Of a stretch of 41,346 nucleotides of DNA, positions 1 to 39,562 are shown piece by piece. Origin of the DNA: a virus; the UHGV virus genome UHGV-0007810; one strand, given 5' to 3'. A program made the translations under genes and the position numbers. Positions within the stretch are counted from its first letter, which is position 1; each line of letters opens with the position of its first letter. The notes under the pieces were generated by a model that was not told where the DNA came from, did not search any database, and worked only from the letters and a program-made list of their open reading frames with translations.

Positions 1-48
1 TTAACAGCTAACTCATAGCAAGTCATTCCTATTCAGATGCCAACTCAA

Positions 49-79
49 CCCTCTGTTTTTGCAGAGGGTTTTTGTTTTT
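49..79 (+). terminator. Rho-independent terminator-like hairpin upstream of integrase
   Basis: CCCTCTG / CAGAGGG stem (49-55, 62-68) followed by a T-rich run; a related hairpin occurs at 39537-39562. Confidence 0.5.
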
Positions 80-135
80 ATGTATTCATTTCTATTCACT
101 CTACACCATATTTTTCGGCGGTACAGGTGACGGTA

Positions 136-150
136 TTACCTTAAAGGTAT
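136..150. promoter_or_regulatory. Operator-like palindrome (one mismatch) upstream of integrase
   Basis: TTACCTTAAAGGTAT, matches the TTACC-N5-GGTAA family in 9 of 10 fixed positions; lies inside a longer inverted repeat GACGGTA...TACCGTC. Confidence 0.45.
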
Positions 151-192
151 ACTCTCATACCGTCATGAAAATGGTTTCTATACGGGTGAATT

Positions 193-1443
193 GTGCTTAC
201 CGATACAAAATTAAAAAACCTCAAGCCGCAGGACAAACTGTACAAGGTCTCCGATCGTGACGGGCTGTATGTAGCTGTGCTTACGTCAGGCACGGTCTCG
301 TTTCGCTATGACTACCGTATCAACGGTCGCCGCGAAACACTGGTAATCGGGCAGTATGGGCGTGACGGTATCAGCCTGGCAGAAGCGCGAGAAGAACTGA
401 TTGCTGCAAAGAAGCTGCTTAAAGCAGGCCAGTCACCGGCTGCGGCTAAACGTGACGGTATCAAAAAGATTCGTGGTGCCGAGACGTTTGCGGTACATAC
501 CGACAGTTATATGAAACACGTCATCCTGGCTGACAGTACCCGCGCAATGAAACAGGCGGTGATCGACCGTGACATACTTCCGGTTCTTGGCAATAAAATG
601 ATGGCTGAAATTACCACATCGATGGTTCGTGATTTGTGTGACCGGATTGTCGAACGCGGTGGCCGGGCAACAGCAGTGCAGGCCAGGGAGATCATCAGTA
701 GCGTATACCGTCACGCCAATGACCGTGGTCATGGTTTGTTTAATCCTGCGGCTGACATTAAACCTTCGTCTATCGCCATATTTAAACCACGAGAGCGAAC
801 ACTGACACCAGAAGAAATTGGCCTGTTCTTCCGCACGCTGGATGCCATTGGTGCTATGGGCACTATGAAAATGGCTTTAAAACTGGTGCTTATCACTATG
901 GTTCGTAAGGGCGAATTCACCAATGCAACGTGGGATGAAATAGATTTTAAAAAATGGACATGGACAATTCCTCCAGACCGCATGAAGGGAAGCCGGGCGC
1001 ACGTTATTTACCTGCCTAAACAGGCACAGGATATATTGGTCGGGTTGCAGATGTGCGCTGGTGGAAGTGAATATCTGGTTCCTGGTCGTTACAATTTCCG
1101 AAAGCCATTATCTAATGCCGCGCTGAACTCTCTGATCGACAGAACGGTGAAAATAATAAATGAAGATGGTGAGCATATTCAGGACTTCACTGTACATGAT
1201 ATGCGCCGTACAGCCAGTACGTTGTTGCATGAGGCTGGTTATCCTTCAGACTGGATTGAAAAGGCTCTGGCACATGAGCAGAAAGGTGTGCGCGCCGTAT
1301 ATAACAAAGCGGAATACGCCAGACAGCGCGCCTACATGTTGCAGCAGTGGGCCGATATGATTGATTCATGGATTGACGGGGAGCATACGGATCTGATTCC
1401 GTTCTCCCCGTCGAAGTTTGAGAAGTGGATGGCGGGGGAATAA
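193..1443 (+). CDS. Tyrosine recombinase / integrase, P4-type (GTG start in ORF track)
   Basis: 416 aa; N-terminal arm-binding-like region typical of P4-family integrases; C-terminal HDMRRT...HEAGY...VYNKAEY matches the tyrosine recombinase catalytic region. Confidence 0.85.
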   Translation: MLTDTKLKNLKPQDKLYKVSDRDGLYVAVLTSGTVSFRYDYRINGRRETLVIGQYGRDGISLAEAREELIAAKKLLKAGQSPAAAKRDGIKKIRGAETFAVHTDSYMKHVILADSTRAMKQAVIDRDILPVLGNKMMAEITTSMVRDLCDRIVERGGRATAVQAREIISSVYRHANDRGHGLFNPAADIKPSSIAIFKPRERTLTPEEIGLFFRTLDAIGAMGTMKMALKLVLITMVRKGEFTNATWDEIDFKKWTWTIPPDRMKGSRAHVIYLPKQAQDILVGLQMCAGGSEYLVPGRYNFRKPLSNAALNSLIDRTVKIINEDGEHIQDFTVHDMRRTASTLLHEAGYPSDWIEKALAHEQKGVRAVYNKAEYARQRAYMLQQWADMIDSWIDGEHTDLIPFSPSKFEKWMAGE

Positions 1444-1446
1444 CGT

Positions 1447-1641
1447 TTAATAGTTCTGCTGATTTTCTTCCATCTCGGCTTCTGCTGCCAGTGATTCAAT
1501 TTTATCTGCGAATATTGCTGACAGTGTTGCAAATTCAGCATCAGTGACAGCGGGAATTGGAACAAACCTGATCCCGCTGTGTGCAAGCATGTTTGCAGTT
1601 TCAAGGCATTTCCTTAAATCTGCTGGTGATGCCCGGTTCAT
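1447..1641 (-). CDS. Hypothetical small acidic protein (64 aa)
   Basis: Internal ATG at 1641 overlaps the stop of the upstream methyltransferase gene (ATGA), suggesting translational coupling; the longer ORF-track version overlaps that gene. Confidence 0.4.
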   Translation of the reverse strand: MNRASPADLRKCLETANMLAHSGIRFVPIPAVTDAEFATLSAIFADKIESLAAEAEMEENQQNY

Positions 1642-2288
1642 GCTGCACGCTCCCGCCCCTGGTTGTCTGTTGGTGACAGCGGAGCATTGCTGAATGCATT
1701 TGTTAATCTGGCAATATCCAATGCGTATCCAGGGTGTAGTTGCACTGCCGGGTCTTCGCACTGATTACCCCAAACATCGAAGCCATGAGACGACTGGCGG
1801 GCGAACAGTTCAATGCGAGAAACATCGCCTAACAATTGCACAAGTTTTTCACGAACGACATCTGGTTTTCTTGAATGCTCAAGCCGCGGTGCGGTAAATG
1901 ACTGAACGATCCCTGCATTAATGCGCGGAGGTAGTTTTCCCTTTACTGCAAACAGGCAATCTTCACTATTGGCGCGAGTCATGTGTCCCATACCCATAAC
2001 CAGTTTATCTGGTTGTCGACTACCACATTTTATCCATGTGAAGCCCTTCATGGTCATCAGACGGAATCCCCAGGCTTCAACAACTTTTAGAGCTTCGAGT
2101 GGTTGTGTTGGCACCCACCACATGGCCAACAGACAGTTTTCATCGGCCAAATCCCACACAGGAAGGCGGCAGATATCCATCACACTCATAACCGGATATT
2201 TAAAACCGGCACCGCGATTACCATCTGCGGCTTTGTCCCGGTATACCCAGGGTGGATCTGCATAGATTAGTGTGTATTTCTTAGTCAT
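1638..2288 (-). CDS. DNA N6-adenine methyltransferase, MT-A70-like
   Basis: 216 aa with the catalytic DPPW motif (LIYADPPWVY) near the N-terminus; GGGGTGG Shine-Dalgarno upstream. Confidence 0.75.
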   Translation of the reverse strand: MTKKYTLIYADPPWVYRDKAADGNRGAGFKYPVMSVMDICRLPVWDLADENCLLAMWWVPTQPLEALKVVEAWGFRLMTMKGFTWIKCGSRQPDKLVMGMGHMTRANSEDCLFAVKGKLPPRINAGIVQSFTAPRLEHSRKPDVVREKLVQLLGDVSRIELFARQSSHGFDVWGNQCEDPAVQLHPGYALDIARLTNAFSNAPLSPTDNQGRERAA

Positions 2289-2580
2289 AAACCACCCCGC
2301 AACATCCTATACCGCTATAGTCGCCACGGCGAAGGCCGTTACCTTTTGTGATACATTGGTCCCTGCGAACCGCGATCCTTGCACGCTCAACATCACCAGA
2401 AGCAACATCCATACACTGAAGCCAAAGGTGAGCGGCAATGCGGAACTGTCCTTTTTTCTCTCTTTCAATTGCGCGTTTTTCGATCTCTATCGCCGCAGGA
2501 GTAACGGCGACAATCTTTGACGGACTGCGCATTGAAACCTTGTTCATGTGATATTTTTCAAGTCGGCTTAACTTTCTCAC
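2281..2580 (-). CDS. Hypothetical protein
   Basis: 99-aa ORF ending with an overlap onto the methyltransferase start; start codon uncertain (GTG at 2580 or internal ATGs). Confidence 0.35.
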   Translation of the reverse strand: MRKLSRLEKYHMNKVSMRSPSKIVAVTPAAIEIEKRAIEREKKGQFRIAAHLWLQCMDVASGDVERARIAVRRDQCITKGNGLRRGDYSGIGCCGVVYD

Positions 2581-2689
2581 TTAATCCAACCCTCTCTGAA
2601 AATTAATGCCAGCAGATAAAGCCATGCTGAAACAGAGGCCAGGAATAAGTACCATCCTGACCATTTGCTCCAGTGCCTTAGCAGCACAC

Positions 2690-2938
2690 TCATGCAGCGT
2701 TGCTCACAGGACGATATACACGTTGCTGAACAGGAGGTTTTTTACCCTGGAACTCTGCCGGGCTTGCTGCCTGACGTTCATCAAGCCAACGCTCAACTTC
2801 ATCACGGTTCCATGCGCAGCGTTTATCGGTGATATACCAGCGTTTAGGAAATTCCCCTGCGCGCTCCATACGATCGATAGTGCTCCATGACAGTGGCACC
2901 ACCGCCAGGAGTTCCTTCTTACCTAATGCACCTTTCAT
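2690..2938 (-). CDS. AlpA-family excisionase / transcriptional regulator
   Basis: 82 aa; LLAVVPLSWSTIDRMERAGEFPKRWYIT resembles the AlpA/Xis helix-turn-helix; GAGAGG Shine-Dalgarno. Confidence 0.65.
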   Translation of the reverse strand: MKGALGKKELLAVVPLSWSTIDRMERAGEFPKRWYITDKRCAWNRDEVERWLDERQAASPAEFQGKKPPVQQRVYRPVSNAA

Positions 2939-2987: not shown

Positions 2988-3869
2988 TTACATAGATGTT
3001 TCGTTTAATTCTTCCCGACGAACGCTGTAAACGTCGGTGGCTTTTGCCAGCAGTTCGTCATCATCTGAAAGTTTTTGTGCAATATATTTGTAAGCCTTAT
3101 CCAGTTCGGAGACAGTGCTGTAATTCATCGCTGCGCTGGTAAAGGCCATCAGCATTTCTTCTGGCTCACGGCTATCCGCTTTACGCGTTTGCTCATCAGG
3201 CTTTTTCACTGATTTAGCGTTGATCAGACTGTTCATTCCCGCAGCCGTAGTTGTTTGCGGAGTAATGTCTCGCTCAACGCGCGGTGCCGTTTCCTGTAAT
3301 TCGTCAGGGGTGTAAACACCAAGAAGTACATCAGGAGCGTGCAGGCGAGCCCATCGTTTCGTGCAAAGATAGGCAAGTTGCTGGCGCGGATCCTGTTCCC
3401 ACAATGGAGAGTTACGCACTCCGGCTTGCGCCATACTGATGGTAAGCTCACGTGGTTCTGCTTCTCCTTTAAGGACTGCTGACACAGTTACCGTCAGATT
3501 CGGTGATTTATCTGTTTTGCCGTTAACATTCGACCAGTCACCGCTCCAGCGATAATTAAGGCGTGTCGCCAGCAGGCTGGAAGAGGATACGACCGCGTTT
3601 ACCAACTGTGCTTCGTAGCCTAACGTTCCGTTTACCACATGCGTTTTCTGCGCCACGGCGAAAGGGTTCATTCCCCACTGTGCCGCCTGCATGGTCACCG
3701 CCAGACAATCGGCAGGTTTGCCTTCAAGATGTTTCGGTACAGTCGCTTTGCTTTGTGACATCAACTCCGCGAAACGCACCAGTTGATTCATGCCCTCCGG
3801 GCTGAAGATTGCCGCAGCAGTACCTACAGTTGCGCCTGGTTGTGATGTGATTGCGATATCATTGCTCAT
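2988..3869 (-). CDS. RecT-family single-strand annealing recombinase
   Basis: 293 aa; the central region (KPADCLAVTMQAAQWGMNPF...GTLGYEAQL) resembles RecT/Bet-like proteins; start overlaps the stop of the upstream exonuclease gene. Confidence 0.65.
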   Translation of the reverse strand: MSNDIAITSQPGATVGTAAAIFSPEGMNQLVRFAELMSQSKATVPKHLEGKPADCLAVTMQAAQWGMNPFAVAQKTHVVNGTLGYEAQLVNAVVSSSSLLATRLNYRWSGDWSNVNGKTDKSPNLTVTVSAVLKGEAEPRELTISMAQAGVRNSPLWEQDPRQQLAYLCTKRWARLHAPDVLLGVYTPDELQETAPRVERDITPQTTTAAGMNSLINAKSVKKPDEQTRKADSREPEEMLMAFTSAAMNYSTVSELDKAYKYIAQKLSDDDELLAKATDVYSVRREELNETSM

Positions 3870-4687
3870 ACGTACATATCCTGTTTACGTGCCCAGTCAG
3901 GGCGTTTAATAATTTCCACTCCGCCCCACTCATCGTTGATGCGGCATTCGTGATAGGTATTCAGATCCCGGCGGAACAGAGCGTGCCCGGCATCGACATC
4001 CGGCGCATCCAGCTCGAACACGCGTACCGGATATCGACCACAATCAATGCTTTCGCTCACGGCAAGAAAGAAAAAACCATGCGGCTGACCAGTAACCCTC
4101 ATTGCGCCTTCGCGGTACATTGCGTCCTGCACGTGGTAGCGGAATTCCTCGATGTGGCGTGCAAAACGGTCCATATCTGCAACCTTTTTCACGTCGACGA
4201 TCACGTTGTGCTCGTTCAGCCATTTGTCTGGACGAATGCGGCACAACTCACCAGTATCTTCATCGTTCCAGTACATTGATGCTTCGCAGTAACCAGGTGC
4301 TTCCAGCATCCAGCGTGCCGCCGGGTGAGCCATTGCGCTATCACGCATCAGCTCCAGTTTCCGCCACTGCTCGGCATCAAGTACCGTAATCCCCATATCC
4401 GCCACATCACGAAGAAATGCCTCTTCGTCAGCTTTACCTTGTTTCGTCCGACGATCGAATTTCGGTGAAACAATGAAGCGTTTGTCGAACTCTCCAGGCT
4501 CCAGAAGCAGACAGTGCAATGCGGTTCCCATATCCAGTGCAGACTTTTTCTCTTCGTCTTCTGGTGCTGCCTGAACCCATTTAAGAAGCGCCGGATTCTT
4601 GGCAACCATGTCCAGTTGCGACTTACTCACGCCGTCACCGGCGTGGTAGTCTTCGTTGCTGATGTCGAAATAAATTCCCGGTTTCAT
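3866..4687 (-). CDS. RecE-like exonuclease (PD-(D/E)XK nuclease domain)
   Basis: 273 aa; N-terminal YFDISNEDYHA motif and overall pattern resemble the exonuclease VIII / YqaJ-type nuclease domain; paired with RecT. Confidence 0.65.
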   Translation of the reverse strand: MKPGIYFDISNEDYHAGDGVSKSQLDMVAKNPALLKWVQAAPEDEEKKSALDMGTALHCLLLEPGEFDKRFIVSPKFDRRTKQGKADEEAFLRDVADMGITVLDAEQWRKLELMRDSAMAHPAARWMLEAPGYCEASMYWNDEDTGELCRIRPDKWLNEHNVIVDVKKVADMDRFARHIEEFRYHVQDAMYREGAMRVTGQPHGFFFLAVSESIDCGRYPVRVFELDAPDVDAGHALFRRDLNTYHECRINDEWGGVEIIKRPDWARKQDMYV

Positions 4688-4983
4688 GCCGCGTCCCTCT
4701 GTCCATCAAGCTGATCCGCCAGATCCCAGCGCGCTATAATTGCCATTGCCTCTCGCCGATAGGCATCCATCAGTTCTTCGAACTCAGGGCTGTCTTTAGC
4801 AGCCTCCAGCACTTCCTGACGAACGCCTTTGCCTGTTACAACGTCGAAAGTTGAGGACAGTTGATGAAGTCGGATGCTCTCAATCAGTTCAACTTGTCGG
4901 TCATATAGCTGTTCTGACAGGCGGTAGTCCTTGTCGAATGCCAGCATGATTTTTTGAAGATTTTTCTGCTGATTAACGTTCAT
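4684..4983 (-). CDS. Hypothetical protein (about 99 aa from the second ATG)
   Basis: ORF-track ORF 4684..4998; the second ATG at 4983 is preceded by GGAGGG and is the likelier start. Confidence 0.5.
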   Translation of the reverse strand: MNVNQQKNLQKIMLAFDKDYRLSEQLYDRQVELIESIRLHQLSSTFDVVTGKGVRQEVLEAAKDSPEFEELMDAYRREAMAIIARWDLADQLDGQRDAA

Positions 4984-4985: not shown

Positions 4986-5138
4986 TCAGCCCTCCCATAT
5001 CTCGTTATCGTTGGCTACATCGCGAGCTTCTTTGCTGACGAAAGCCCACTTAATGCCTTCCTGTAAGGTGCGGAACTTCCAGCTCATGAATCCGCATGCA
5101 GTAACGCAGTACCAACCTTTGATGATTTTCCACTGCAT
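4986..5138 (-). CDS. Hypothetical small protein (50 aa), first gene of the leftward early operon
   Basis: Not in the ORF track (<60 aa); hand translation MQWKIIKGWYCVTACGFMSW...; GAGGT Shine-Dalgarno 8 nt upstream; stop lies 2 nt before the next start. Confidence 0.35.
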   Translation of the reverse strand: MQWKIIKGWYCVTACGFMSWKFRTLQEGIKWAFVSKEARDVANDNEIWEG

Positions 5139-5157: not shown

Positions 5158-5172
5158 TTACCGTTGAGGTAA
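5158..5172. promoter_or_regulatory. Operator-like palindrome TTACCGTTGAGGTAA
   Basis: Exact TTACC-N5-GGTAA, 20 nt upstream of the first gene of the leftward early operon. Confidence 0.55.
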
Positions 5173-5219: not shown

Positions 5220-5234
5220 TTACCCATTAGGTAA
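5220..5234. promoter_or_regulatory. Operator-like palindrome TTACCCATTAGGTAA
   Basis: Exact TTACC-N5-GGTAA in the promoter region of the leftward early operon. Confidence 0.55.
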
Positions 5235-5291: not shown

Positions 5292-5876
5292 TTATTGTTT
5301 GTTTTTTTCGTTCTGGTTGATGACAAATTCAATGTAACTTTCGATCTTTGCTTTCTCGGTTTCGGGTAACAATGCGTAGCGCGAGCGGTCATAGTTGATG
5401 GTCGCAGGGTCGTGCGGGTGAATCAGTAATTCATAGCCGTGACGCCCGAATGCGGATGCAACATTCTCCAGGGTGGAAATGGAAACGCTGACCTCATTGT
5501 TTAACAGGCGACTGATTGTCACCTGGGCGACGCCGGATGCGCGGTGAAGTTTTCCCTGCGTTGAAAGGTCGCGGCTTTCGCTCATCCAGCGTTCCAGGTT
5601 GTGAGCCGCCAGCTGACCAATGTCGCTTGGGCCGACAGGCTGAAAACCTTCCTGAGAAAGCGAGCGATCGATATCAAGCCAGTTACGGGGTTTATTGGCG
5701 GCAGCTTCAATTTTTCGTGCAACCTGGTCGCCGATAACCTTCTTGCCAAGAGCCCAGCGGTTTACCAGATTTGCCTGAGTTCCAAGTTTTTCTGCCATCC
5801 GCGTCTGAACACCATTGAATTCACGGTCGATCAAGTCGTTGAGATTTTGCCTGCGGACGTCCTGGATACTTTTCAT
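5292..5876 (-). CDS. CI-like phage repressor with two helix-turn-helix regions, no LexA-like peptidase domain
   Basis: 194 aa; HTH-like segments near the N-terminus (QTRMAEKLGTQANLVNRW) and the middle (ASGVAQVTISRLLNNE); divergent from the cro-like gene; no G-D-S-M / Ser-Lys cleavage-domain signature seen. Confidence 0.7.
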   Translation of the reverse strand: MKSIQDVRRQNLNDLIDREFNGVQTRMAEKLGTQANLVNRWALGKKVIGDQVARKIEAAANKPRNWLDIDRSLSQEGFQPVGPSDIGQLAAHNLERWMSESRDLSTQGKLHRASGVAQVTISRLLNNEVSVSISTLENVASAFGRHGYELLIHPHDPATINYDRSRYALLPETEKAKIESYIEFVINQNEKNKQ

Positions 5877-5931: not shown

Positions 5932-5946
5932 TTACCCAACAGGTAA
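5932..5946. promoter_or_regulatory. Operator O1 in the repressor/cro intergenic region
   Basis: TTACCCAACAGGTAA, exact. Confidence 0.6.
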
Positions 5947-5979: not shown

Positions 5980-5994
5980 TTACCTTATGGGTGA
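5980..5994. promoter_or_regulatory. Operator O3 (variant) in the repressor/cro intergenic region
   Basis: TTACCTTATGGGTGA, one half-site mismatch; about 40 nt upstream of the cro-like start. Confidence 0.5.
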
Positions 5995-6030: not shown

Positions 6031-6261
6031 ATGAGCGATAACGGACATTTCGATTTCAAAAAGCACTGGCTTGCACTTACTCCGGATGAGCGTGAAGCCT
6101 TCGCACAGGAAGCCGGAACGACGAGTCACTATATCCAGACTCACTTAACAGGTAAGCGCAAAATGCCAGGTAAGGTATTGATGAATGGGCTTTTTAAAGC
6201 CTGTAAAACAAGACAATGGCTGCGCTCAAAAGCAGAACTGGCATACTTCTTCTACTCATGA
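6031..6261 (+). CDS. Cro-like HTH regulator
   Basis: 76 aa; HTH-like LTPDEREAFAQEAGTTSHYIQTHLTGKRK; divergent from the repressor across the triple-operator region. Confidence 0.6.
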   Translation: MSDNGHFDFKKHWLALTPDEREAFAQEAGTTSHYIQTHLTGKRKMPGKVLMNGLFKACKTRQWLRSKAELAYFFYS

Positions 6262-6316: not shown

Positions 6317-6331
6317 GTACCTCAAAGGTAA
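6317..6331. promoter_or_regulatory. Operator-like palindrome (variant) GTACCTCAAAGGTAA
   Basis: Just downstream of the post-cro terminator and upstream of the replication operon. Confidence 0.45.
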
Positions 6332-6411: not shown

Positions 6412-6612
6412 ATGGAAATCATTACACGTATTGATGCCGCAAAGCGCGGACTTAAACGCTACTACACCGGAAAACCATGTAAGCATGGACATGACAGTGA
6501 ACGCTGGGTTTACAACGGACACTGTGTTGAGTGCACCATGGAATCAAACCGTCGCATCAGGGCAGAGATTAAGCAGATCATGATTAATTCCTCCCCACAA
6601 CACTCAAGCTGA
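6412..6612 (+). CDS. Hypothetical Cys/His-rich small protein (cII position)
   Basis: About 66 aa from the ATG at 6412; C-x4-H ... C-x2-C arrangement (KPCKHGH...GHCVEC); start uncertain (ORF track starts at 6349 with TTG). Confidence 0.45.
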   Translation: MEIITRIDAAKRGLKRYYTGKPCKHGHDSERWVYNGHCVECTMESNRRIRAEIKQIMINSSPQHSS

Positions 6613-8339: not shown

Positions 8340-8342
8340 ATC

Positions 8343-31245: not shown

Positions 31246-31313
31246 TGTGAAATTTCCATCTATAATCCACCTCAATGTGGCGTCAATGAGTGTAGCACTG
31301 ACTTTTGTTTCGT

Positions 31314-31338
31314 CCACAAAAAAGCCCGCGGCGCGGGC
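31314..31338 (-). terminator. Rho-independent terminator after the AT-rich gene
   Basis: GCCCGCG / CGCGGGC stem with an 8-nt A-run on the + strand (T-run on the - strand). Confidence 0.6.
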
Positions 31339-32038: not shown

Positions 32039-32098
32039 GACATTACCTCATATCTCATAAGTTCATTACACGGATTAATAAAAATGAAACCAATCCGT

Positions 32099-32113
32099 TT
32101 ACCCTTGAGGTAA
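32099..32113. promoter_or_regulatory. Operator-like palindrome TTACCCTTGAGGTAA
   Basis: Exact; in the promoter region of the leftward small-ORF / YafO-like unit. Confidence 0.55.
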
Positions 32114-32161
32114 TAGTACGCTATTCACCCACAGTCTGCAATCTGTACAGAATTATTTAAA

Positions 32162-32177
32162 GGCACATCCCTGTGCC
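32162..32177 (-). terminator. Terminator-like hairpin after the Bro-N gene
   Basis: GGCACA-TCCC-TGTGCC 9 nt beyond the stop, followed on the - strand by a T/A-rich stretch. Confidence 0.35.
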
Positions 32178-32881: not shown

Positions 32882-33150
32882 AGTGGTTACCTTTTAGTCA
32901 GGTTAATCACCACTACCGACGCCAATCGGTTGGTGGTGAACTGTGCAGGGTTGGCGTAACCGGCTAAAAGGACCCGGCGCACCTTTCGGTGCCCCCACAC
33001 AGCCCACCATAATACGAATGTGGCCGTGCTATACGCATAAAAAAACCGCTTGCGCGGTGAATGCGCCTTTTAGTAATCCGGGACGCCAATCCCGGCACTG
33101 GATTTTGCCAGTGCCCGATTACTATGGCACAAGAGGAGTGCAATGTAAAT

Positions 33151-33165
33151 TTACCGCAAAGGTAA
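33151..33165. promoter_or_regulatory. Operator-like palindrome TTACCGCAAAGGTAA
   Basis: Exact; in the divergent region between the Bro-N gene and the zinc-ribbon gene. Confidence 0.55.
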
Positions 33166-33243
33166 TGATAAACGCGGAGAAATATTAAAATCAACCGCAT
33201 TTGGTTGATTGCGTTTAACGCTTGATCACCTGAAAGCAAGATA

Positions 33244-33258
33244 TTACCTTTAAGGTAA
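33244..33258. promoter_or_regulatory. Operator-like palindrome TTACCTTTAAGGTAA
   Basis: Exact; 20 nt upstream of the ATG at 33279. Confidence 0.55.
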
Positions 33259-33278
33259 TGTTATTGTGAGGAAAAGCA

Positions 33279-34007
33279 ATGGAAGTTTTCTGGATAGTTG
33301 TTGGTGTTGTTACGGTGATTATTTACGTTATCAACCAGAACAGGACTAAGGTCTCTGATCGCACAGTCGTTAATCATCGCAAAACGATAAAGACCGAAGA
33401 TGGAGAAATAACGATTAATCGTACACAGGTGATAGACCACACCTCCACTCAGTTTCAAAAAACTGGAGGTAATGCGCCTAATATTTCCGCACCTCCTGCT
33501 TATGATAGTGCGGTAATCCAGACATATTATAAACAGCAGGAGTTAGCAAAAGAGAGGCAACTGATTCAGCCAAAGCCATTTACAGCAGAGCTTCCACCTG
33601 GAGTGTCAACGCGTCCGGCATATCATGGAAGATTCCCTGGTGATGACATATCGTCTCAGTCATCTAAAAAAGCACCTCAGGCAGTATCAGAGCCAGCAAG
33701 AATACCTTCTGTATCGCCGCCAAAAGAAGAATCAGCTAACAGAGTTTCAAGTGGTAGCAAGCAGTGCTTGCGATGCAGAATAAACCTTCCATATGAAAAA
33801 TTCAGGAAATCGTCAAAAAATCCAGATGGATTGACTAAGTGGTGTGCAAGGTGTCTCGATGGTCCAAAGAATACACGCCATATGAAGTGGTGCCCAATTT
33901 GTAATGTCCGCAGAAAACGAACCAGCTTTTACCCTAATAATCAAAATGCGGATGGCTTAATGGCATGGTGCAAAACGTGCTGGGACGAGCACAAAGCGAA
34001 ACGATAG
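33279..34007 (+). CDS. Membrane-anchored protein with tandem C-x2-C ... WC-x2-C zinc-ribbon-like repeats
   Basis: 242 aa; N-terminal TM helix (FWIVVGVVTVIIYVI), Pro/Ser-rich linker, two repeats CLRCR...DGLTKWCARC and CPICN...DGLMAWCKTC. Confidence 0.6.
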   Translation: MEVFWIVVGVVTVIIYVINQNRTKVSDRTVVNHRKTIKTEDGEITINRTQVIDHTSTQFQKTGGNAPNISAPPAYDSAVIQTYYKQQELAKERQLIQPKPFTAELPPGVSTRPAYHGRFPGDDISSQSSKKAPQAVSEPARIPSVSPPKEESANRVSSGSKQCLRCRINLPYEKFRKSSKNPDGLTKWCARCLDGPKNTRHMKWCPICNVRRKRTSFYPNNQNADGLMAWCKTCWDEHKAKR

Positions 34008-34030
34008 GCCGCTCTAGCGGCCTTTTCTTT
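34006..34030. terminator. Bidirectional terminator-like hairpin between convergent genes
   Basis: AGGCCGC-TCTA-GCGGCCT followed by TTTCTTT. Confidence 0.55.
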
Positions 34031-34286
34031 ATGTGGTTTGTTTTCGTAATTGTTCGGCACAATAGTCGAGATGTGTTTGCAAATCCTGCATAGACATCTG
34101 TGAGCTGGTGACGTAGTTAATCAGTGCAGTCAGTTCGGCAAGTGGGCCATCGACATTAAATCCATCCTTATCGAGATCCCGGAGTAATTTCATCAAGTGC
34201 GATCCCTCCACCAGTGACCTGACGCCTCCCGGCGTGTGAATCCTTTCGGTAAATCCGTCTTCCAGTGGATAGTGATACTGCTGCAT
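34029..34286 (-). CDS. Small protein behind a LexA box (candidate SOS-induced antirepressor)
   Basis: About 85 aa from ATG 34286 (GGAG 8 nt upstream); homologous to the Bro-N protein C-terminus; consensus LexA box 22-37 nt upstream of the start. Confidence 0.6.
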   Translation of the reverse strand: MQQYHYPLEDGFTERIHTPGGVRSLVEGSHLMKLLRDLDKDGFNVDGPLAELTALINYVTSSQMSMQDLQTHLDYCAEQLRKQTT

Positions 34287-34307: not shown

Positions 34308-34323
34308 CTGTATATTTATACAG
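34308..34323. promoter_or_regulatory. LexA (SOS) box
   Basis: CTGTATATTTATACAG with flanks AA...TA; matches CTGT-N8-ACAG and the consensus TACTGTATATATATACAGTA at 18 of 20 positions. Confidence 0.7.
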
Positions 34324-34362: not shown

Positions 34363-34377
34363 TTACCCGAAAGGTAA
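34363..34377. promoter_or_regulatory. Operator-like palindrome TTACCCGAAAGGTAA
   Basis: Exact; between the LexA-box promoter and the tail-fibre gene. Confidence 0.55.
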
Positions 34378-34481
34378 TATCTGTTCATATTCACAGTCTT
34401 TCTATCCATATGTGGTTTTTCAGGTAATAGAATAACCAGATATGCGGCGCAACGGGTGCTGCGACTATCTGGAGATTTAAC

Positions 34482-37109
34482 ATGACGGTCTCAACCGAAG
34501 TTGACCACAACGAATACACAGGTAACGGCGTTACGACATCATTTCCGTATACCTTCCGTATTTTCAAAAAATCCGACCTGGTTGTTCAGGTGTCTGACCT
34601 TAACGGTAACGTAACAGAACTAGTGCTGGATGCTGGTTATACAGTAACAGGGGCGGGAACTTATAGTGGCGGTGCAGTGGTTCTTCCGTCGCCGCTTGCT
34701 GCTGGCTGGCGAATCACGATAGAGCGTGTGCTTGATGTGGTGCAGGAGACTGATCTTCGCAATCAGGGAAAATTTTTCCCCGAAGTTCATGAAGATGCAT
34801 TTGACTACCTGACGATGCTGATCCAGCGATGTTTTGGGTGGTTCAGACGTGCATTGATGAAACCATCTTTGCTTGCAAAATATTACGATGCAAAGCAAAA
34901 CAGAATTTCCAATTTGGCCGATCCGAAGAACTCTCAGGATGCTGTAACAAAAAAATATGTGCAAGACTTATATAGTGGGGTAGTTAGGCCTGATAACATC
35001 GACAACGCAATGTATGTTACAGATCTCGCTAATGGCAAATATGACAGCTCTCGCTTGGACATGTCTGTCGGGTATGAGATAAAAACCATTTCAAACTTTG
35101 TCAGGATTAATGGGGCTGTTTATCGTGTTACTCCTGCTGCAGTCGGCATAGTGACAGAAATAACCTCGCGTTACATTTTGGCCGGAGGGAAAAAAAGCTA
35201 CCTGTCTCATATTTCCAGGCATGTCAGTGGTACGCGTAGGCCGCTGAACTGGAAATTAGAATTCAGCATCATAGACGATGAGATTACCGCAGATCTTAAA
35301 GATCAGTATGGTTACACGACCATGGGATTTCAGGGGATTTACATAGACAGCAATGATGGAATGGTATACATCGGCTGGCAGACGCTAGACCCCGCATCGG
35401 TATGGGTTACGGTGCATGACTGGGTAACAGGAGCATTGGTAACACGTCTTCATTTTCCGAATAACGTTGGTGCACCAGAAGGCATCCACGTTTACCGAGT
35501 GGCAGGACAGCGTTACATCCTGCTGCCGTACAGCCCATCTCGCACTATCAGAATTTACCCTATCGAAGATCCGCGTACGCTGGTTGATAAAACGCAGATT
35601 ACAAACTTCACTGAATCAACACGCCTTGGAGTGCGATATCAGTTTAGTGGCTTTGGTAATACCCTGATATACGAAAATGCGGATATGGGTTGGCCGAAAA
35701 TTTTTGATGTTGAGACAGGTGTATCCAATATCTTTAACACACTGGATATTAACAGCCTTATAGAAGGATCTTACAGTCCAATGGGGACTATTACGGTTGA
35801 TGCAAATGTTGGAGGTCGCGGAGCCGGTAAACCAAAACGGCAGGGTGTCGCTCTTGGTTCTCAACGGATATTTGCTGGTATTGGTGCATCTACCACGGCG
35901 GGATCTGGAAATACTTTCGCAGGGTTGCAGGGTTATATTGAGTACAGCCTTAATGGTTCAGAATTAGGTCAGTACCTGCTGTCACCTGCAGATTTCAAAA
36001 CATACTGGGATAGTTATTCAGGGAAGAGTGTTTACTCCACTGAAAATGAGGGGGTGCAGTCTTGTGATATTTCTGGCTCTGAGGAATTGTATCTTCTACA
36101 GTCTATTCGCTATGACAATGGGGGCGGATCAAATTATAGGACTTTAAACATCATTCGCGCTAACTGTCCATCTAATGAACCTGGAACAGTAGACATGACT
36201 CCGCTATCCAATGCCTCATCACAGTTATTTAACCCTCGCGGAAGGGTGATTAACGCTGGCCGTCACCCTGTAAACCCGGCTGATGGTATTGCGCTATTTA
36301 CATCGGCACAGGCTATTTGTGACTATTTGCGGAATACAGATGCAGGTAGATATGTGACATATCTTGAACAGGATATGCCACTGTTTGAAGGTGGGCCATC
36401 TGCGCCAGGACAGATGACGCTGCCAGCATTCTGCCTATTGCAGATCGACTTCATCAACGGCGATACCTGGGAAATTACAGTTAATGGAACTAACAGGGCT
36501 AATAATTATACAGGAAGGATTTCCAAAAACGGCGGGTACAACTCTTTTACTAAGGTGTCCTCCCGCAGCATGTCGATTCTCGGATCCCCTGGTCTGGTTG
36601 ATGTATCAATTCGCTCACCTAACTCACTAAATCTTCCAGAATTTGCTGGAGACTGGTCTACTGGTGTAAGTATAGGAGCTGCAGGTGGGGTGACAAACTG
36701 GCAGCCAGAAGGAACAGGTAACGGAGCATTATGGGAGTCAGGATATGCAAAAAACCGTGTGTTGCAGATATTCATGTCCACAACATCAAAGCTGTTCTTC
36801 CGCTACGCAGACGATGCTATTCGCGCAGGTAACACAGGCTGGGCTGAGGCATGGTCGTCGCTGAACACGACCGTCGATTCAAGTGGTTTCATCAAAAAAG
36901 CCTCTCCGGTTGTGAAGATTTTCTCAGACGGTAGTAGTGAAACAAATCGCGAATCAGATGGGGTAACCGTCACACGGCTGGCATTGGGTGAATATCTGAT
37001 TGAGGGTTGCGTAGGTCTGAATGCAGATGCTTCATGGGGGGGGATTGATGGTGGATTTGAAATACCGCAGGACCGAAACAAGCAGCCGCTCATCGGATTA
37101 TGTTGTTAA
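34482..37109 (+). CDS. Tail fibre / tailspike protein
   Basis: 875 aa; GGAG Shine-Dalgarno; N-terminal ~150 aa resemble the T7 gp17 virion-attachment domain as recalled (YTGNGVTTSFPYTF..., ISNLADPKNSQDAVTKKYVQ). Confidence 0.75.
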   Translation: MTVSTEVDHNEYTGNGVTTSFPYTFRIFKKSDLVVQVSDLNGNVTELVLDAGYTVTGAGTYSGGAVVLPSPLAAGWRITIERVLDVVQETDLRNQGKFFPEVHEDAFDYLTMLIQRCFGWFRRALMKPSLLAKYYDAKQNRISNLADPKNSQDAVTKKYVQDLYSGVVRPDNIDNAMYVTDLANGKYDSSRLDMSVGYEIKTISNFVRINGAVYRVTPAAVGIVTEITSRYILAGGKKSYLSHISRHVSGTRRPLNWKLEFSIIDDEITADLKDQYGYTTMGFQGIYIDSNDGMVYIGWQTLDPASVWVTVHDWVTGALVTRLHFPNNVGAPEGIHVYRVAGQRYILLPYSPSRTIRIYPIEDPRTLVDKTQITNFTESTRLGVRYQFSGFGNTLIYENADMGWPKIFDVETGVSNIFNTLDINSLIEGSYSPMGTITVDANVGGRGAGKPKRQGVALGSQRIFAGIGASTTAGSGNTFAGLQGYIEYSLNGSELGQYLLSPADFKTYWDSYSGKSVYSTENEGVQSCDISGSEELYLLQSIRYDNGGGSNYRTLNIIRANCPSNEPGTVDMTPLSNASSQLFNPRGRVINAGRHPVNPADGIALFTSAQAICDYLRNTDAGRYVTYLEQDMPLFEGGPSAPGQMTLPAFCLLQIDFINGDTWEITVNGTNRANNYTGRISKNGGYNSFTKVSSRSMSILGSPGLVDVSIRSPNSLNLPEFAGDWSTGVSIGAAGGVTNWQPEGTGNGALWESGYAKNRVLQIFMSTTSKLFFRYADDAIRAGNTGWAEAWSSLNTTVDSSGFIKKASPVVKIFSDGSSETNRESDGVTVTRLALGEYLIEGCVGLNADASWGGIDGGFEIPQDRNKQPLIGLCC
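37036..37043. repeat. G8 homopolymer near the tail-fibre 3' end
   Basis: Eight consecutive G, 66 nt before the tail-fibre stop, where a +1-frame ORF begins. Confidence 0.9.
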
Positions 37110-37326
37110 CCAAGATGGATCTGTGTTGGTGAAAACGTTTCACCGCACTCATGATAACTCGCCCGTTTTTGCACGTAACGACATCCCTGGTGTTTCGAAC
37201 GGTGACCCGATCGACATTCCTGCTAATCAATTCGTTTCTGTGCGAGTACAGATGCCTGAGGATTCTGCATGGAATAAGCTTAAGGAACAACTCAATAAGG
37301 CTGAACCAATGGAAAAAAATAAGTAA
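37048..37326 (+). CDS. Hypothetical ORF in the +1 frame overlapping the tail-fibre 3' end (separate gene or frameshifted continuation)
   Basis: About 92 aa; begins right after the G8 tract and overlaps the tail-fibre gene by 62 nt. Confidence 0.3.
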   Translation: MVDLKYRRTETSSRSSDYVVNQDGSVLVKTFHRTHDNSPVFARNDIPGVSNGDPIDIPANQFVSVRVQMPEDSAWNKLKEQLNKAEPMEKNK

Positions 37327-37483
37327 TTATTTTCCATATCAGGCATGGCGGAGAAATCATAAGTTTAGTAATTACCACGGCAAGGACGCCACTTATCAAC
37401 AATGTAATTATCATTTAATTCTCTTGACATCCTCTACGCCAAGAAGAACTAGTTTTTACGGCGCACCGGATAAATACGAATAA

Positions 37484-37536
37484 TCAAGAATAATATTGAG
37501 TAATAATTATTCTTATATGGTTTGTTGTGTATAATT
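37484..37536 (+). promoter_or_regulatory. AT-rich inverted repeat and candidate sigma70-like promoter for the lysis cassette
   Basis: AAGAATAATATT...AATTATTCTT inverted repeat; TATAAT at 37530-37535 with a weak -35 (TTATTC) 17 bp upstream. Confidence 0.3.
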
Positions 37537-37571
37537 AGCTGACAGTTTAAGTGGATCTGTATATACAAAAT

Positions 37572-37988
37572 ATGGTGCACATTATGTCAGCTCAACTAAC
37601 TAGTGAATCTTTAAATCAATGGCTTAGCATGAGTTCTCTTGCTGCGGTTATAGCAGGAGTTCCTCCTGAGGTTGCTTTAGGGTCTTTGGCTGGTGCGGTA
37701 ATTTTTGTTACCTCTGCGGTAGAGTACCCAATTCATCGTCGCGTACTCTTATCGATGCTTAGCTTTCTCTGCGGCCTTCTTTTTTATAAACCAGCAGCAT
37801 CAATTCTTATCGGCATAGCCAGCCTGATCCCTACTATCACGCAGGACTCTTTTGAAAAAGGGATTGTTTTCTCTGCTGGCGCATTCGTGTCAGCAATTGT
37901 TGCTGTGCGTATTGGTATATGGCTCTACCACCGTTCCGATAATCCACGCGAGTTAATTCCGGGGAGAAAAGACGATGGTAACGCATGA
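37572..37988 (+). CDS. Holin (putative, multi-TM), possible dual start
   Basis: 3-4 hydrophobic helices; two in-frame ATGs separated by three codons (M-V-H-I-M), reminiscent of holin/antiholin dual-start motifs; start uncertain (ORF track gives GTG 37551). Confidence 0.5.
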   Translation: MVHIMSAQLTSESLNQWLSMSSLAAVIAGVPPEVALGSLAGAVIFVTSAVEYPIHRRVLLSMLSFLCGLLFYKPAASILIGIASLIPTITQDSFEKGIVFSAGAFVSAIVAVRIGIWLYHRSDNPRELIPGRKDDGNA

Positions 37989-38283
37989 GTTTTTTTTGCT
38001 TATCACCAATGCAGTTATTTGTACTGGCATAGCAATTCGCGTTGTCACATTCCGGCGTAACGGATCTCAACATCGAAGATGGGGGGGGTGGCTTGCTTAT
38101 TTCCTGATTGTTGCTGCGGCCAGTATTCCGGTTCGTGTTGCCTATGCAATCTGGTTCCGCACGCCAATGGCTGTGGATTTATCTGAGGTCATTATCAACG
38201 CTGTCATGCTCGCTGCGGTTATTAAAACGCGCGGTAACGTCGTTCAAATTTTCAAAGTATCGAGGTCTAAACATGGAGATTAA
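37975..38283 (+). CDS. Second small membrane protein of the lysis cassette (holin/antiholin-like)
   Basis: 102 aa with 2-3 TM segments; GGAG Shine-Dalgarno; its end overlaps the endolysin start; contains a G8 tract. Confidence 0.45.
38081..38088. repeat. G8 homopolymer inside the lysis-cassette membrane-protein gene
   Basis: Eight consecutive G, in frame. Confidence 0.9.
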
Positions 38284-38902
38284 ACAATTCCAGCGAGCTG
38301 CTGGTATCAGCGAGGCGCTGGCTGCACGCTGGTTCTCGTATATAACTTCTGCGATGAGAGAGTTTGGTATCAGCAAACCAGAAGATCAGGCTATGTTTAT
38401 TGCTCAGGTCGGGCATGAGTCTGGAGGCTTCACCAGGTTGCAGGAGAATTTCAATTACAGCGTCACCGGACTGGCTAACTTCGTTCGTGCCGGTCGTCTC
38501 ACTCAGGGACAGGCCAACGCACTGGGTCGCCGTGCTGGTGAACCGCCATTACCACTCGAGCGCCAGCGTGCGATCGCAAATCTGGTGTACAGCAAACGCA
38601 TGGGGAACAATGCCCCCGGCGATGGCTGGAATTACCGAGGTCGCGGACTTATCCAGATTACCGGTTTGAATAACTATCGTGATTGCGGAAACGGCCTGAA
38701 AGTGGACCTGCTGGAGAATCCTGAACTGTTGGCGCAGGACGAATACGCGGCTCGTAGCGCGGCGTGGTTCTTCTCCAGCAAAGGCTGCATGAAGTATACC
38801 GGAGATATTGCACGTGTAACTCTGCTTATCAATGGTGGCCGGAACGGCATTGATGACCGGCGCGCGCGATACATCACTGCCAGTAAGGTGCTGGCGGTAT
38901 GA
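38273..38902 (+). CDS. Endolysin, glycoside hydrolase family 19 (chitinase-like)
   Basis: About 209 aa; motifs [13 protein letters not shown] and [11 protein letters not shown] are characteristic of phage GH19 endolysins; no N-terminal signal-anchor. Confidence 0.8.
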
Positions 38903-39381
38903 TCTGGGCATTCGCAAAAGCATACTGGAAACAGTTGGTTATCATGGCGATGTTTGCTGTTCTGGTCATATCAGGAGTTGTAGCCTGGAATGCACACGGC
39001 AGTCGTCAGTACGATGCCGGGTATGCACAGGCGAAAGAAGACCGCAAAACCGAAGATGAGAGAATTCGTCAGCACTACGAACAGGAGAAATCGATCAATG
39101 AACGTGAAGCGCAGCAGAGGATCGACCAGGCGCGCAATGATGCTCTTGATGCTGCCGCTCGCGCTGGCCGGTTGCAGCAACAGCTCGTTGCCATCCGTGA
39201 GCAGCTCAGGCACTATAACGCCATTGTCGGCGCTGGGTCGTCAGCCGCAGACACCGGAGTTTTGCTTGCCGACGTGTTCAGCAAATCTCTCGAGAGAAAT
39301 AGACAACTGGCAGAGTATGCTGACCGGGCAGCCGAAGCCGGAAGAGTCTGCGAAAAACAGTACGACACCCTGACCAGATAG
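38899..39381 (+). CDS. i-spanin (Rz-like)
   Basis: 160 aa; N-terminal TM helix then a charged coiled-coil domain; ATGA overlap with the endolysin stop. Confidence 0.7.
39098..39373 (+). CDS. o-spanin (Rz1-like lipoprotein) embedded in the i-spanin gene in the +1 frame
   Basis: ATG 39098 with AGGAGA upstream; signal peptide with lipobox LALAGC; Pro/Ser-rich mature part; wholly nested. Confidence 0.6.
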   Translation: MNVKRSRGSTRRAMMLLMLPLALAGCSNSSLPSVSSSGTITPLSALGRQPQTPEFCLPTCSANLSREIDNWQSMLTGQPKPEESAKNSTTP

Positions 39382-39536
39382 CATGGCATTTTTCATGGTA
39401 CTTATTTCCGGTGACGGTATATAAAACGGTACGAGAAAAATTCATCTTTGGAAAAATGTTATCACTCAATTGGTTATGGTATCCGTAAATAATTGAGTGG
39501 GAATGATTTTGATCCCTGCACTATGAATGAACAAAA

Positions 39537-39562
39537 CCCTCTGTTACTACAGAGGGTTTTTT
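39537..39562. terminator. Rho-independent terminator after the lysis cassette
   Basis: CCCTCTG-TTACTA-CAGAGGG followed by TTTTTT; same stem as the hairpin at 49-68. Confidence 0.65.

Follow-up and report, generated by a model that had tools for sequence, protein, structure and literature searches.

A phiV10/epsilon15-type prophage at the guaA 3' end in virus genome UHGV-0007810 and a proposal for its gene control

The virus genome UHGV-0007810, a stretch of 41,346 nucleotides (nt) which is called the window throughout, was analyzed as a whole. We are highly confident that its contents are best explained by a phiV10/epsilon15-type prophage (genus Uetakevirus, whose members are temperate podoviruses), which occupies the standard site of these phages at the 3' end of E. 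coli guaA and would work in the manner proposed below. Proteins were searched against Pfam, PHROGs, NCBIfam and PDB sequences, and all phiV10 proteins were mapped to the window by tblastn. A preliminary description of the same DNA had supposed a temperate podovirus of the epsilon15/phiV10 kind, which was confirmed by a phiV10 alignment at ~97% identity and by a gene order colinear with phiV10, epsilon15 and Tyrion.

The following features mark the ends of the prophage.

1-192, plus strand: phage arm beside attL; bases 1-2 are the final two bases of the 17-bp attachment (att) core
42-73: hairpin, phage-borne surrogate terminator for guaA, 84% like the native one at 39530-39561
39492-39508, plus strand: attR core ATTGAGTGGGAATGATT, placed by alignment to K-12 guaA; true right end of the prophage
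39530-39561: native guaA/yfgI terminator hairpin, host DNA beyond attR

The 17-mer ATTGAGTGGGAATGATT consists of the last codons of guaA, ATT GAG TGG GAA TGA (IEWE-stop), and two more bases, and host sequence lies beyond it. The same 17-mer is given as attP/attB core for ZX5, phiV10 and epsilon15, and ZX5 integrates at the guaA 3' end via attgagtgggaatgatt (PMC9782041). In the lysogen XJ55, TTAACAGC, with which the window starts at position 1, comes immediately after the guaA end ...ATTGAGTGGGAATGA. The window thus opens one base past the guaA stop codon, with nearly all of the attL core outside it on the left. Integration at the guaA 3' end via this core, a mark of Uetakevirus, is seen in attR of the window, in attL of XJ55 and in the published core. 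Recombination within the 17 bp by the P4-type tyrosine integrase restores the guaA stop codon. The integrase has the domains of the P4 type; its target is the protein-coding guaA 3' end and not a tRNA gene, which would be usual, albeit not obligatory. The host flank at 39509-41346 (1.8 kb) carries E. coli yfgI, yfgH and yfgG, which adjoin guaA in K-12, and is present in all 5426 complete E. coli genomes. The preliminary description had set the right end at 39562, where the host guaA/yfgI terminator ends; the prophage stops at 39508. The repeat 42-73/39530-39561 was also considered as a pair of att sites and rejected, as both copies are terminator hairpins, whereas the core proper is the 17-mer up to 39508. 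After integration, the phage hairpin at 42-73 is located directly behind guaA, and the native terminator has been moved 39.5 kb to the attR side.

In a megablast search of the window halves against the phage collection, the best matches were phiV10, the O157 typing phages 9 and 10, phiv142-3, PAS61, ZX5, HEMP4 and TL-2011b, with an identity of 96-98% and a coverage of 83-92% for the left 25 kb and of 50-70% for the right 21 kb. Next came the Salmonella phages epsilon15, PAT1 and 65FD/66FD at ~77% and Enterobacter phage Tyrion at 80-82%. For phiV10, identity was 97.4% in window 1-25000 (92% covered) and 95.8% in window 20000-41346 (67% covered); epsilon15 matched at ~77% over 34-37% of the query. 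By direct alignment, phiV10 (39,104 bp) is a circular permutation of window 1-39508 at ~97% identity, whereby window position 1 corresponds to phiV10 26735 and window position 39508 to phiV10 26736. Counterparts were found by tblastn for 47 of the 55 phiV10 proteins tested; structural proteins were 96-100% identical and the repressor 100%, and the core genes of phiV10 other than the tail fiber were full length, without split matches. By tblastn, the gene order is colinear with phiV10, and the maps annotated for epsilon15, Tyrion and phiV10 itself agree with it; it runs from the integrase to the leftward recombination genes, repressor/cro and the replication genes, then to regulator, terminase and portal, followed by capsid, tail hub and internal proteins, and lastly by spike and lysis. 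Membership in Uetakevirus was consequently assigned on nucleotide identity, synteny, signature virion proteins and the att site. At least 80% of the left 25 kb is present in 418 of the 5426 complete E. coli genomes.

This kind of phage is already known and its backbone is not new; phiV10-type guaA prophages are common in E. coli, and such prophages have been sequenced, imaged and used as reporter phages. Induction and electron microscopy, which the preliminary description had named as checks, are both published for ZX5 (vB_EcoP_ZX5, MW722083; host O87:H52:K1), which shares att integration, repressor sequence and the tRNA with the window and is 98% identical to it over 88% of the left 25 kb. 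ZX5 is a podovirus with a 60 nm head and a 15 nm tail, is spontaneously induced and integrates at guaA (PMC9782041). In the right half, the ZX5 match covers 50% of window 20000-41346 and ends near 31185, so that high identity does not extend to the rest, with tail fiber and accessory regions.

The early region, from the integrase to the accessory genes, contains the following features. The assignments from 1447 to 2938, except the small membrane protein, and from 8343 to 10898 are from Pfam.

193-1443, plus strand: P4-type tyrosine integrase (Pfam Arm-DNA-bind_3 PF13356, Phage_int_M PF22022 and Phage_integrase PF00589), 98.8% identical to phiV10 p31
1447-2938, minus strand: far end of the leftward early operon, 97-100% identical to phiV10 p32-p36, with the next five genes
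1447-1641, minus strand: DUF1382 protein
1638-2288, minus strand: MT-A70 DNA methyltransferase
2281-2547, minus strand: PerC-like activator
2577-2693, minus strand: small membrane protein
2690-2938, minus strand: AlpA-family regulator or excisionase
2988-3869, minus strand: RecT (Pfam RecT)
3866-4687, minus strand: RecE-like PDDEXK exonuclease (Pfam DUF3799)
4684-4983 and 4986-5138, minus strand: two small proteins of the recombination module
6031-6261, plus strand: cro-like protein, 100% identical to phiV10 p41
6412-6612, plus strand: small protein, 98.5% identical to phiV10 p42; a terminator lies between the cro-like gene and 6412
6628-7443, plus strand: O-like initiator (Pfam HTH_36 and DnaT domains; not lambda O)
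6882-7034: four 24-nt iterons with the core CCCAAAAACGGGA, inside the O-like initiator gene
7440-8225, plus strand: lambda P-type helicase loader (Pfam Phage_lambda_P, E=1.5e-56)
8343-8687, plus strand: DUF1064 protein
8749-9249, plus strand: eae-like protein
9246-9731, plus strand: Ead/Ea22 protein
within 9700-10548, plus strand: DUF551 protein
within 10401-10898, plus strand: NinX-like protein

What had been read here beforehand was borne out: the P4-type integrase with its three Pfam domains, the RecT/RecE-like pair, the repressor/cro/O/P arrangement (5292-5876 on the minus strand, 6031-6261, 6628-7443 and 7440-8225, with an initiator that is O-like), and the Ea22-type genes (Ead/Ea22, DUF551 and NinX, 9246-10898). 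RecT and the RecE-like nuclease are separate open reading frames (ORFs), as in epsilon15 and Tyrion, whereas a single fused RecET is annotated in phiV10; the RecT part is just 74% identical to phiV10. The iterons are the probable replication origin. Replication would start by the O-like initiator at the iterons within its own gene, together with the lambda P homolog, a protein which epsilon15 does not have.

With the lambdoids (lambda, P22, Shiga toxin (Stx) phages) the window shares divergent repressor/cro-like genes, in-gene iterons, a P-type loader, RecET-type recombination and Ea22, NinX and DUF551 genes; it differs by operators that are scattered genome-wide and by a short-tailed virion with internal ejection proteins. 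Compared with a lambda-type circuit, divergent repressor/cro genes with operators and O/P genes with an in-gene origin were found. The N or Q antiterminator families had no Pfam or PHROG match on the ORFs between P and terS or in the left operon, and the repressor had no S24 domain.

The accessory nin/ea22-like region at 8263-10898 has weak or no matches to phiV10 p46-p54. Within it, no phage record covers at least 80% of 8700-10900, and pieces of this part are shared at 95-97% with Stx-converting and P1-like phages. A recent chimera, in which a P4-like integrase and lambdoid early genes were newly joined to a podovirus virion module, would agree with this patchwork and with the Pfam families lambda P, NinX and Ead/Ea22, which are typical of lambdoids. 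It is nevertheless very improbable: the same order from integrase to virion is found in phiV10, Tyrion and epsilon15, which makes the junctions ancestral to the genus, and the same backbone occurs in the 418 complete E. coli genomes; the synteny with epsilon15 refutes it. The term 'mosaic' of the preliminary description hence applies to the accessory genes at 8700-10900, the only part that has really exchanged pieces with lambdoid and Stx phages, but not to the combination of integrase, early genes and virion, which is the fixed backbone of the genus, epsilon15 included.

The genes for packaging and for the virion are listed next.

11351 onwards, plus strand: terminase small subunit (terS), ATG start at 11351 (Pfam Terminase_2)
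11941-13416, plus strand: terminase large subunit (terL), 99% identical to phiV10 p02
13507-13878, minus strand: N4 gp49/Sf6 gp66-family protein (Pfam PF13876)
14080-14153, minus strand: tRNA-Arg(UCU) (ARAGORN; Rfam tRNA, 73.3 bits)
14581-14787, plus strand: small protein
14802-16481, plus strand: portal (PF12236, E=3e-187; PDB 8ck0_A portal, E=1e-178)
16478-16774, plus strand: Bbp19-like protein
16771-17472, plus strand: protease/scaffold (phrog_458 protease)
17481-18473, plus strand: major capsid protein, epsilon15 gp7 family (PF20911, E=2e-149)
18525-18962, plus strand: Bbp16 cement protein
18964-19308, plus strand: head-region protein without assigned function
19353-19682, plus strand: gp10-like capsid staple (PF21628, E=1e-51)
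19682-20287, plus strand: adaptor/connector (PDB 8ck1_E 'Connector Protein', E=4e-26)
20287-22758, plus strand: tail nozzle, 823 amino acids (aa) (PDB 8ck1_A 'Tail Nozzle', E=1e-215)
22758-23222, plus strand: internal protein, 154 aa
23222-23767, plus strand: internal protein of the T7 gp14 family, 181 aa (Pfam T7_gp14 PF24072)
23767-26280, plus strand: internal protein, 837 aa, with a lysozyme-like domain at residues 249-398
26277-28079, plus strand: internal protein, 600 aa
28085-30559, plus strand: internal protein, 824 aa

From these assignments, the virion is a T7-like short-tailed particle built of portal, gp7 capsid, gp10 staple, Bbp16-like cement, adaptor, nozzle and spikes. The head genes at 16478-19682 have the Pfam matches PF25181, PF20911, PF21190 and PF21628 and are 96-100% identical to phiV10. 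The portal has the Q/M/A-rich tail ascribed to it before, with 16 Q, 10 A and 5 M among the last 61 residues. Adaptor and nozzle belong to phrog_394 and phrog_376 'tail protein'; a literature search found no paper for PDB entry 8CK1. TerL, the nozzle and the three large internal proteins had no Pfam match and were identified via PHROGs, PDB and phiV10. The internal proteins match PHROGs 308 and 418 'internal virion protein' and also 992, 1145 and 684, and are homologs of epsilon15 gp13-gp17. Three of the four large internal proteins that had been proposed (837, 600 and 824 aa) were confirmed, as was the gp14-like protein, while the fourth (823 aa) proved to be the tail nozzle. At infection, the epsilon15 core passes out of the capsid and spans the periplasm (literature summarized in PMC12391199), and we infer that the five internal proteins correspond to this core and would likewise bridge the periplasm.

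A siphovirus- or myovirus-like virion could be argued from a partial match of residues 186-422 of the 837-aa protein to the PHROG 'tail length tape measure protein'. These residues are a lysozyme/transglycosylase-like domain with endolysin-like PDB matches (endolysin 7q47_A, Gp29), which were not found in PDB for the 600-aa and 824-aa proteins. Tail tube, sheath, tape measure and baseplate families had no Pfam or PHROG match on any ORF, PDB sequences yielded no siphovirus or myovirus protein either, and portal, nozzle and connector match a solved podovirus tail. We give virtually no credence to a long tail, and the short-tailed virion of the preliminary description stands.

The PF12236 portal, the gp14-family protein, the adaptor-nozzle tail and large internal proteins, one of them wall-degrading, are shared with the T7-like podoviruses (Autographiviridae). 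In contrast to these, the window has no single-subunit RNA polymerase, is temperate with integrase and repressor, and has the epsilon15 gp7 capsid, staple and cement. The supposed absence of a phage RNA polymerase was upheld insofar as no Pfam RNA-polymerase match was found on the scanned ORFs of at least 250 aa. As the phage does not encode an RNA polymerase, it must rely on that of the host for all transcription.

The conserved start of terS is ATG at 11351 (MPAEPK...), as annotated in epsilon15 and Tyrion; the TTG start of phiV10 (= 11270) would place a terminator and two operators inside the gene. The tRNA overlaps the 3' end of the plus-strand ORF 13896-14147 (phiV10 p04), which hence may not be a real gene. 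One tRNA is present in ZX5 also (PMC9782041).

Between the internal proteins and the right end, the window contains inserts, the tail fiber gene and the lysis genes.

30756-31052, plus strand: small membrane-type protein (phrog_3075)
31084-31245, minus strand: 53-aa protein
31339-31884, minus strand: YafO-like protein (Pfam YafO_toxin, 23.2 bits, just below the cut-off of 25)
33279-34007, plus strand: Cys-rich protein, 242 aa (phrog_6762; weak similarity to endonuclease VII and Lar-like zinc fingers)
34482-37326, plus strand: disrupted tail fiber/spike gene (ORF 34482-37109, 875 aa)
37584-37988 and 37975-38283, plus strand: holin-like proteins (Pfam Phage_holin_8 and Phage_holin_3_7)
38273-38902, plus strand: GH19 endolysin (Pfam Glyco_hydro_19)
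38899-39381, plus strand: Rz-like spanin (Pfam DUF2514)
39098-39373, plus strand: embedded Rz1-like lipoprotein

The fiber resembles phiV10 p25 only over the N-terminal 160 aa (71%). The T7 gp17-like N-terminus reported for it before was recovered as a weak match, albeit below the threshold of Pfam (19.7 bits versus a cut-off of 25.2); the domain, comprising the N-terminal 160-193 residues, is the conserved adaptor which epsilon15-type tailspikes have in common and by which they attach to the virion. The intact form of the protein has 949 aa and extends to 37326 (WP_094284520.1, identical in the strains TO6, XJ55 and 2017.18.02CC; the fiber type thus occurs in at least three complete genomes). 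In the window, five nt, TGGCT, are missing after 37094, so that the frame is shifted, the ORF stops at 37109 and the last ~74 residues are removed.

This frameshift represents either a pseudogene or a sequencing error, and the copy as sequenced may not make infectious particles. A defective (cryptic) prophage, with a complete-looking genome and no working tail spikes, is possible, although we lean against it. In its favor, the fiber is intact in three other genomes, and the Pfam domain Phage_tail_C_2 is matched here only over profile positions 1-77 of 133. Conversely, the other phiV10 core genes are full length, a small single deletion could be an error of sequencing or assembly, and the truncated C-terminal domain might still permit assembly. 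The assignment to an integrated phiV10/epsilon15-type phage is qualified at two points, namely by this deletion, which leaves the functional state uncertain, and by the attL core outside the window, as the left junction is confirmed in related lysogens only. Nothing contradicts the prophage identity.

phiV10 (NC_007804.2; Uetakevirus phiV10) has the same gene order, att core, guaA site and repressor as the window and ~97% nucleotide identity over most of it. It differs in the fiber beyond residue ~160, which in the window is also frameshifted, in its O-acetyltransferase gene (oac), which the window does not have, in the ea22/nin-like accessory genes (8930-10891), and in two stretches that are extra in the window, 30562-32175 (YafO-like and other genes; not shared with phiV10) and 33155-34029 (242-aa Cys-rich protein). 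Between tail fiber and holin (37327-37583), serotype-conversion genes such as an O-antigen acetyltransferase are absent, unlike in phiV10 (oac), Tyrion and epsilon15. The YafO-like protein is labeled YafO family toxin by RefSeq in strain TO6; no antitoxin gene is located nearby, the gene is absent from phiV10, and an operator lies ~190 nt upstream (32099). The 242-aa Cys-rich protein, an insert relative to phiV10, is preceded by operators at 33151 and 33244. Read from its N-terminus, the 53-aa protein at 31084-31245 looks secreted.

epsilon15 (NC_004775.2) has the same architecture and att site, ATTACC-N5-GGTAAT operators annotated as repressor sites, three GTGACATGTCAC palindromes, a LexA box upstream of gp19, and gp4 portal, gp7 capsid, gp10 staple and gp11-gp17 tail and core proteins. 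Different from the window are its own endorhamnosidase tailspike, its O-antigen conversion genes (polymerase, inhibitor), a cytosine methyltransferase and RuvC.

The control elements of lysogeny and induction comprise the following features; operators are of the form TTACC-N5-GGTAA.

5292-5876, minus strand: prophage repressor (Pfam HTH_3 and a weaker second HTH-like match)
136-150: operator-like site with one mismatch, before the integrase gene
5158-5172 and 5220-5234: left operator pair
5932-5946 (perfect) and 5980-5994 (one mismatch): right operators in the gap between repressor and cro-like gene
6317-6331: operator-like site between the cro-like gene and the gene at 6412-6612
8263-8277 and 8325-8339: operator pair before DUF1064
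11308-11348, plus strand: putative late promoter with the extended -10 element TGgTACTAT at 11308-11316
11316-11330 (perfect) and 11334-11348 (one mismatch): operators before terS, overlapping the putative late promoter
14476-14490: operator before the portal operon
32099-32113: operator upstream of the YafO-like gene
32186-32881, minus strand: Bro-N antirepressor (Pfam Bro-N; PHROG Ant families)
32929-33014, minus strand: C4 antisense RNA (Rfam RF01695, 77.7 bits, gathering score 45)
33039-33114, minus strand: isrK-like RNA, Hfq-binding (Rfam RF01394, 77.9 bits, above the gathering score)
33151-33165 and 33244-33258: operators before the antirepressor module
34029-34286, minus strand: small protein, 42% identical to the C-terminal domain of the Bro-N antirepressor
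34308-34323: consensus LexA box CTGTATATTTATACAG, just upstream of the small gene 34029-34286
34363-34377: operator, upstream of the same small gene
34381-34396: second LexA-like box, upstream of the same small gene

The repressor is 100% identical to phiV10 p40. In Pfam, it matched HTH-type DNA-binding domains only and not Peptidase_S24. As it thus has no self-cleavage domain, induction should run via antirepressors. The ZX5 repressor, the sequence of which is identical to phiV10 ORF40, was demonstrated to function as such, and its over-expression cut holin and endolysin transcripts by >99.9% (PMC9782041).

The motif TTACC-N5-GGTAA, which the RefSeq record of epsilon15 labels as binding sites of the repressor, occurs 17 times in the window with at most one mismatch, compared to 0.77 expected; 11 of the sites are perfect. 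Fifteen are located before operons, as listed above, and precede the integrase, both early operons, DUF1064, terS, the portal operon, the YafO-like gene, the antirepressor operon and the tail fiber; the other two, inside genes (34595 and 37708), are probably due to chance. An operator is annotated in epsilon15 at the matching place before terS (12-27). With operators before nearly all operons, the repressor seems to hold nearly every transcription unit directly. This scattered layout resembles that of the P1 C1 repressor. The S24-less repressor would silence the prophage by binding these sites, including those at terS, the portal operon and the tail fiber.

The Rfam-predicted C4 and isrK RNAs are located in tandem just upstream of the Bro-N gene and on the same strand, with operators ahead, in a layout similar to P1 immI (c4-icd-ant) and Gifsy-1 isrK. 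A difference to P1 immI is that the antirepressor is Bro-N instead of P1 Ant1/2. Antirepressor activity has been demonstrated for the Bro-N protein ORF4 of ZX5 (PMC9782041). The LexA box before the small gene at 34029-34286 is kept at the same place in phiV10, epsilon15 and Tyrion, i.e., in four genomes with the window, and the gene likely encodes an SOS-controlled antirepressor. Induction would accordingly have two inputs, the small protein controlled by the LexA box and the Bro-N antirepressor gated by the C4-type antisense RNA.

A small regulator gene at the end of the early-right operon and a short palindrome, GTGACATGTCAC, are the only mildly novel part of the prophage.

10891-11229, plus strand: small regulator, 112 aa (phrog_536 'transcriptional regulator')
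11225-11238: palindrome copy 1, TGTGACATGTCACG; overlaps the regulator stop codon, 40 nt upstream of the terminator 11279-11304
13467-13486: two-way terminator after terL
13490-13503: palindrome copy 2, 3 nt past the terminator 13467-13486
31048-31061: palindrome copy 3, CGTGACATGTCACA; directly before the terminator hairpin 31062-31085

The N-terminus of the regulator is basic and its C-terminus Cys-rich, and three helices are predicted; none of the Pfam families matched. Homologs are phiV10 p55, epsilon15 gp49, ZF40 gp22 (63% by alignment) and N15 gp46 (35% by tblastn). In the tblastn search, ZF40 reached 67%, N15 and phiKO2 (telomere phages) 35-37% and Vibrio phages 31%, and P2-like Yersinia phages were also found. 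All regulators returned by a scan of viral contigs with this protein were at least 96% identical. The 120 listed cluster representatives of 749 regulator clusters are all named 'hypothetical', and no function description was found for any phrog_536 member. The LexA-regulated protein family PRK11675 (NCBIfam) matched weakly (E=0.045 and 0.004), far below the cut-off.

Three perfect copies of GTGACATGTCAC are present in the window (starting at 11226, 13491 and 31049), whereas none occurred in 100 shuffles or in 29.7 kb of host DNA. Copy 1 and its terminator are followed by two operators and the true terS start; copy 3 with its terminator is placed after the last internal-protein gene. All three copies are syntenic in phiV10, epsilon15 and Tyrion, and the 12 nt are perfectly kept despite diverged flanks: copy 1 at epsilon15 39612, copy 2 at phiV10 2262, epsilon15 2142 and Tyrion 2702, copy 3 at phiV10 19493, epsilon15 19517 and Tyrion 20377. 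One copy is split by the record ends in phiV10 and Tyrion.

For a wider comparison, 56 loci from different bacterial species with a regulator 47-81% identical were used, which had been found from a four-sequence alignment. GTGAC-NN-GTCAC is present within 40 nt of the regulator gene end in 42 of these, and at least 38 of the 56 have no epsilon15-type terminase within 3 kb downstream (TerL query). The association of regulator gene and palindrome is very strong. Two copies 27-32 nt apart were found in some loci. The central dinucleotide varies by lineage (AT, TG/CA or AC). In ZF40, TGTGACATGTCACA lies two bases past the regulator stop codon and two more copies exist (5125, 7622 and 14944 in total); in N15, CGTGACTGGTCACG, of the TG/CA kind, overlaps the stop codon of gene 46, again with two more copies (28550, 33237 and 39269). 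In Vibrio phage K233, CGTGACACGTCACA is present twice (3505 and 6220), 226 nt past the regulator gene and 20 nt ahead of terS. In three Pectobacterium prophages and one of Providencia, the palindrome or palindromes are followed by a σ70-like promoter overlapped by a LexA box, TACTGTATACGTATACAGTA, which in the three Pectobacterium prophages is found about 100-130 nt after the regulator gene.

Known elements were also considered for the palindrome. A CRP site was set aside, since the TGTGA/TCACA half-sites are 4 nt apart and not 6 as in the consensus. An RNA hairpin was rejected: the 14-mer folds at only -2.7 kcal/mol, which makes a site at the DNA level more likely. The SopB centromere sites of N15 were excluded as well, as the published repeats are GTGCGACC-NN-GGTCGCAC (PMC7205306, Table 4). 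Pfam and PHROG scans of the window gave no match to a ParA or ParB family, and a literature search for the palindrome string had no match.

From the sequence comparisons, we tentatively propose, while considering it doubtful, that regulator and palindrome form a portable, uncharacterized two-part module of unrelated temperate phages, which acts as the late switch in the Q-less epsilon15-like phages. Its range covers epsilon15-like podoviruses, the myovirus ZF40, the telomere phage N15, Vibrio phages and many Enterobacterales prophages. The regulator, with its gene at the far end of the early-right operon, would bind GTGAC-N2-GTCAC beside the terminators at three operon junctions (11279, 13467 and 31062) and modulate transcription into or through the late genes. 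It would thereby decide on read-through of the host RNA polymerase from the early genes into the terminase, virion, tail fiber and lysis genes.

The repressor alone might instead control the late genes, with the palindromes being parts of terminators or insulators, or recombination joints, without a dedicated binding protein. Perfect operators before terS (11316), the portal operon (14476) and the tail fiber (34363) are in line with this, as is the loss of lysis-gene transcripts on over-expression of the ZX5 repressor (PMC9782041); moreover, all three palindromes adjoin terminators at borders of variable inserts. On the other hand, the 12-nt palindrome is perfectly kept while its flanks diverge, and it follows the regulator gene in 42 of the 56 loci, at least 38 of the 56 being without an epsilon15-type terminase in the 3 kb downstream. 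The pairs 27-32 nt apart are operator-like, and the RNA fold is weak. We regard control by the repressor alone as unlikely.

Several points also weigh against the proposed late switch of regulator and palindrome. The AlphaFold2 model of the regulator has a predicted local distance difference test score (pLDDT) of 63, and Foldseek against PDB gave no match with E <4. A terminator-like hairpin is present within 60 nt of 21 of 57 palindromes compared to 375 of 2800 random positions (13%); adjacency to terminators is thus enriched, but mainly in the epsilon15-like subset, and is not universal. ZF40 and N15, a myovirus and a siphovirus, have the homologous protein and the palindrome abutting its stop codon, but, unlike the window, carry Q-like antiterminators in addition, so that the module is not necessarily a late switch everywhere. 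Finally, the palindrome-binding regulator of late transcription, as put forward in the preliminary description, is still an inference with regard to both binding and late-gene role.

Identification of the phage itself is of little consequence, as it is a common and known type. In practical terms, the prophage has the phiV10 immunity type, owing to the identical repressor, combined with a different, frameshifted receptor-binding fiber and no O-antigen acetylase, and carries extra accessory genes for the YafO-like and the Cys-rich protein. The regulator-palindrome module is conserved in temperate phages of very different kinds, which points to a common control step that is seemingly uncharacterized. 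If the proposal is true, the module could explain how late-gene timing is achieved without a Q-type antiterminator in epsilon15-like phages.

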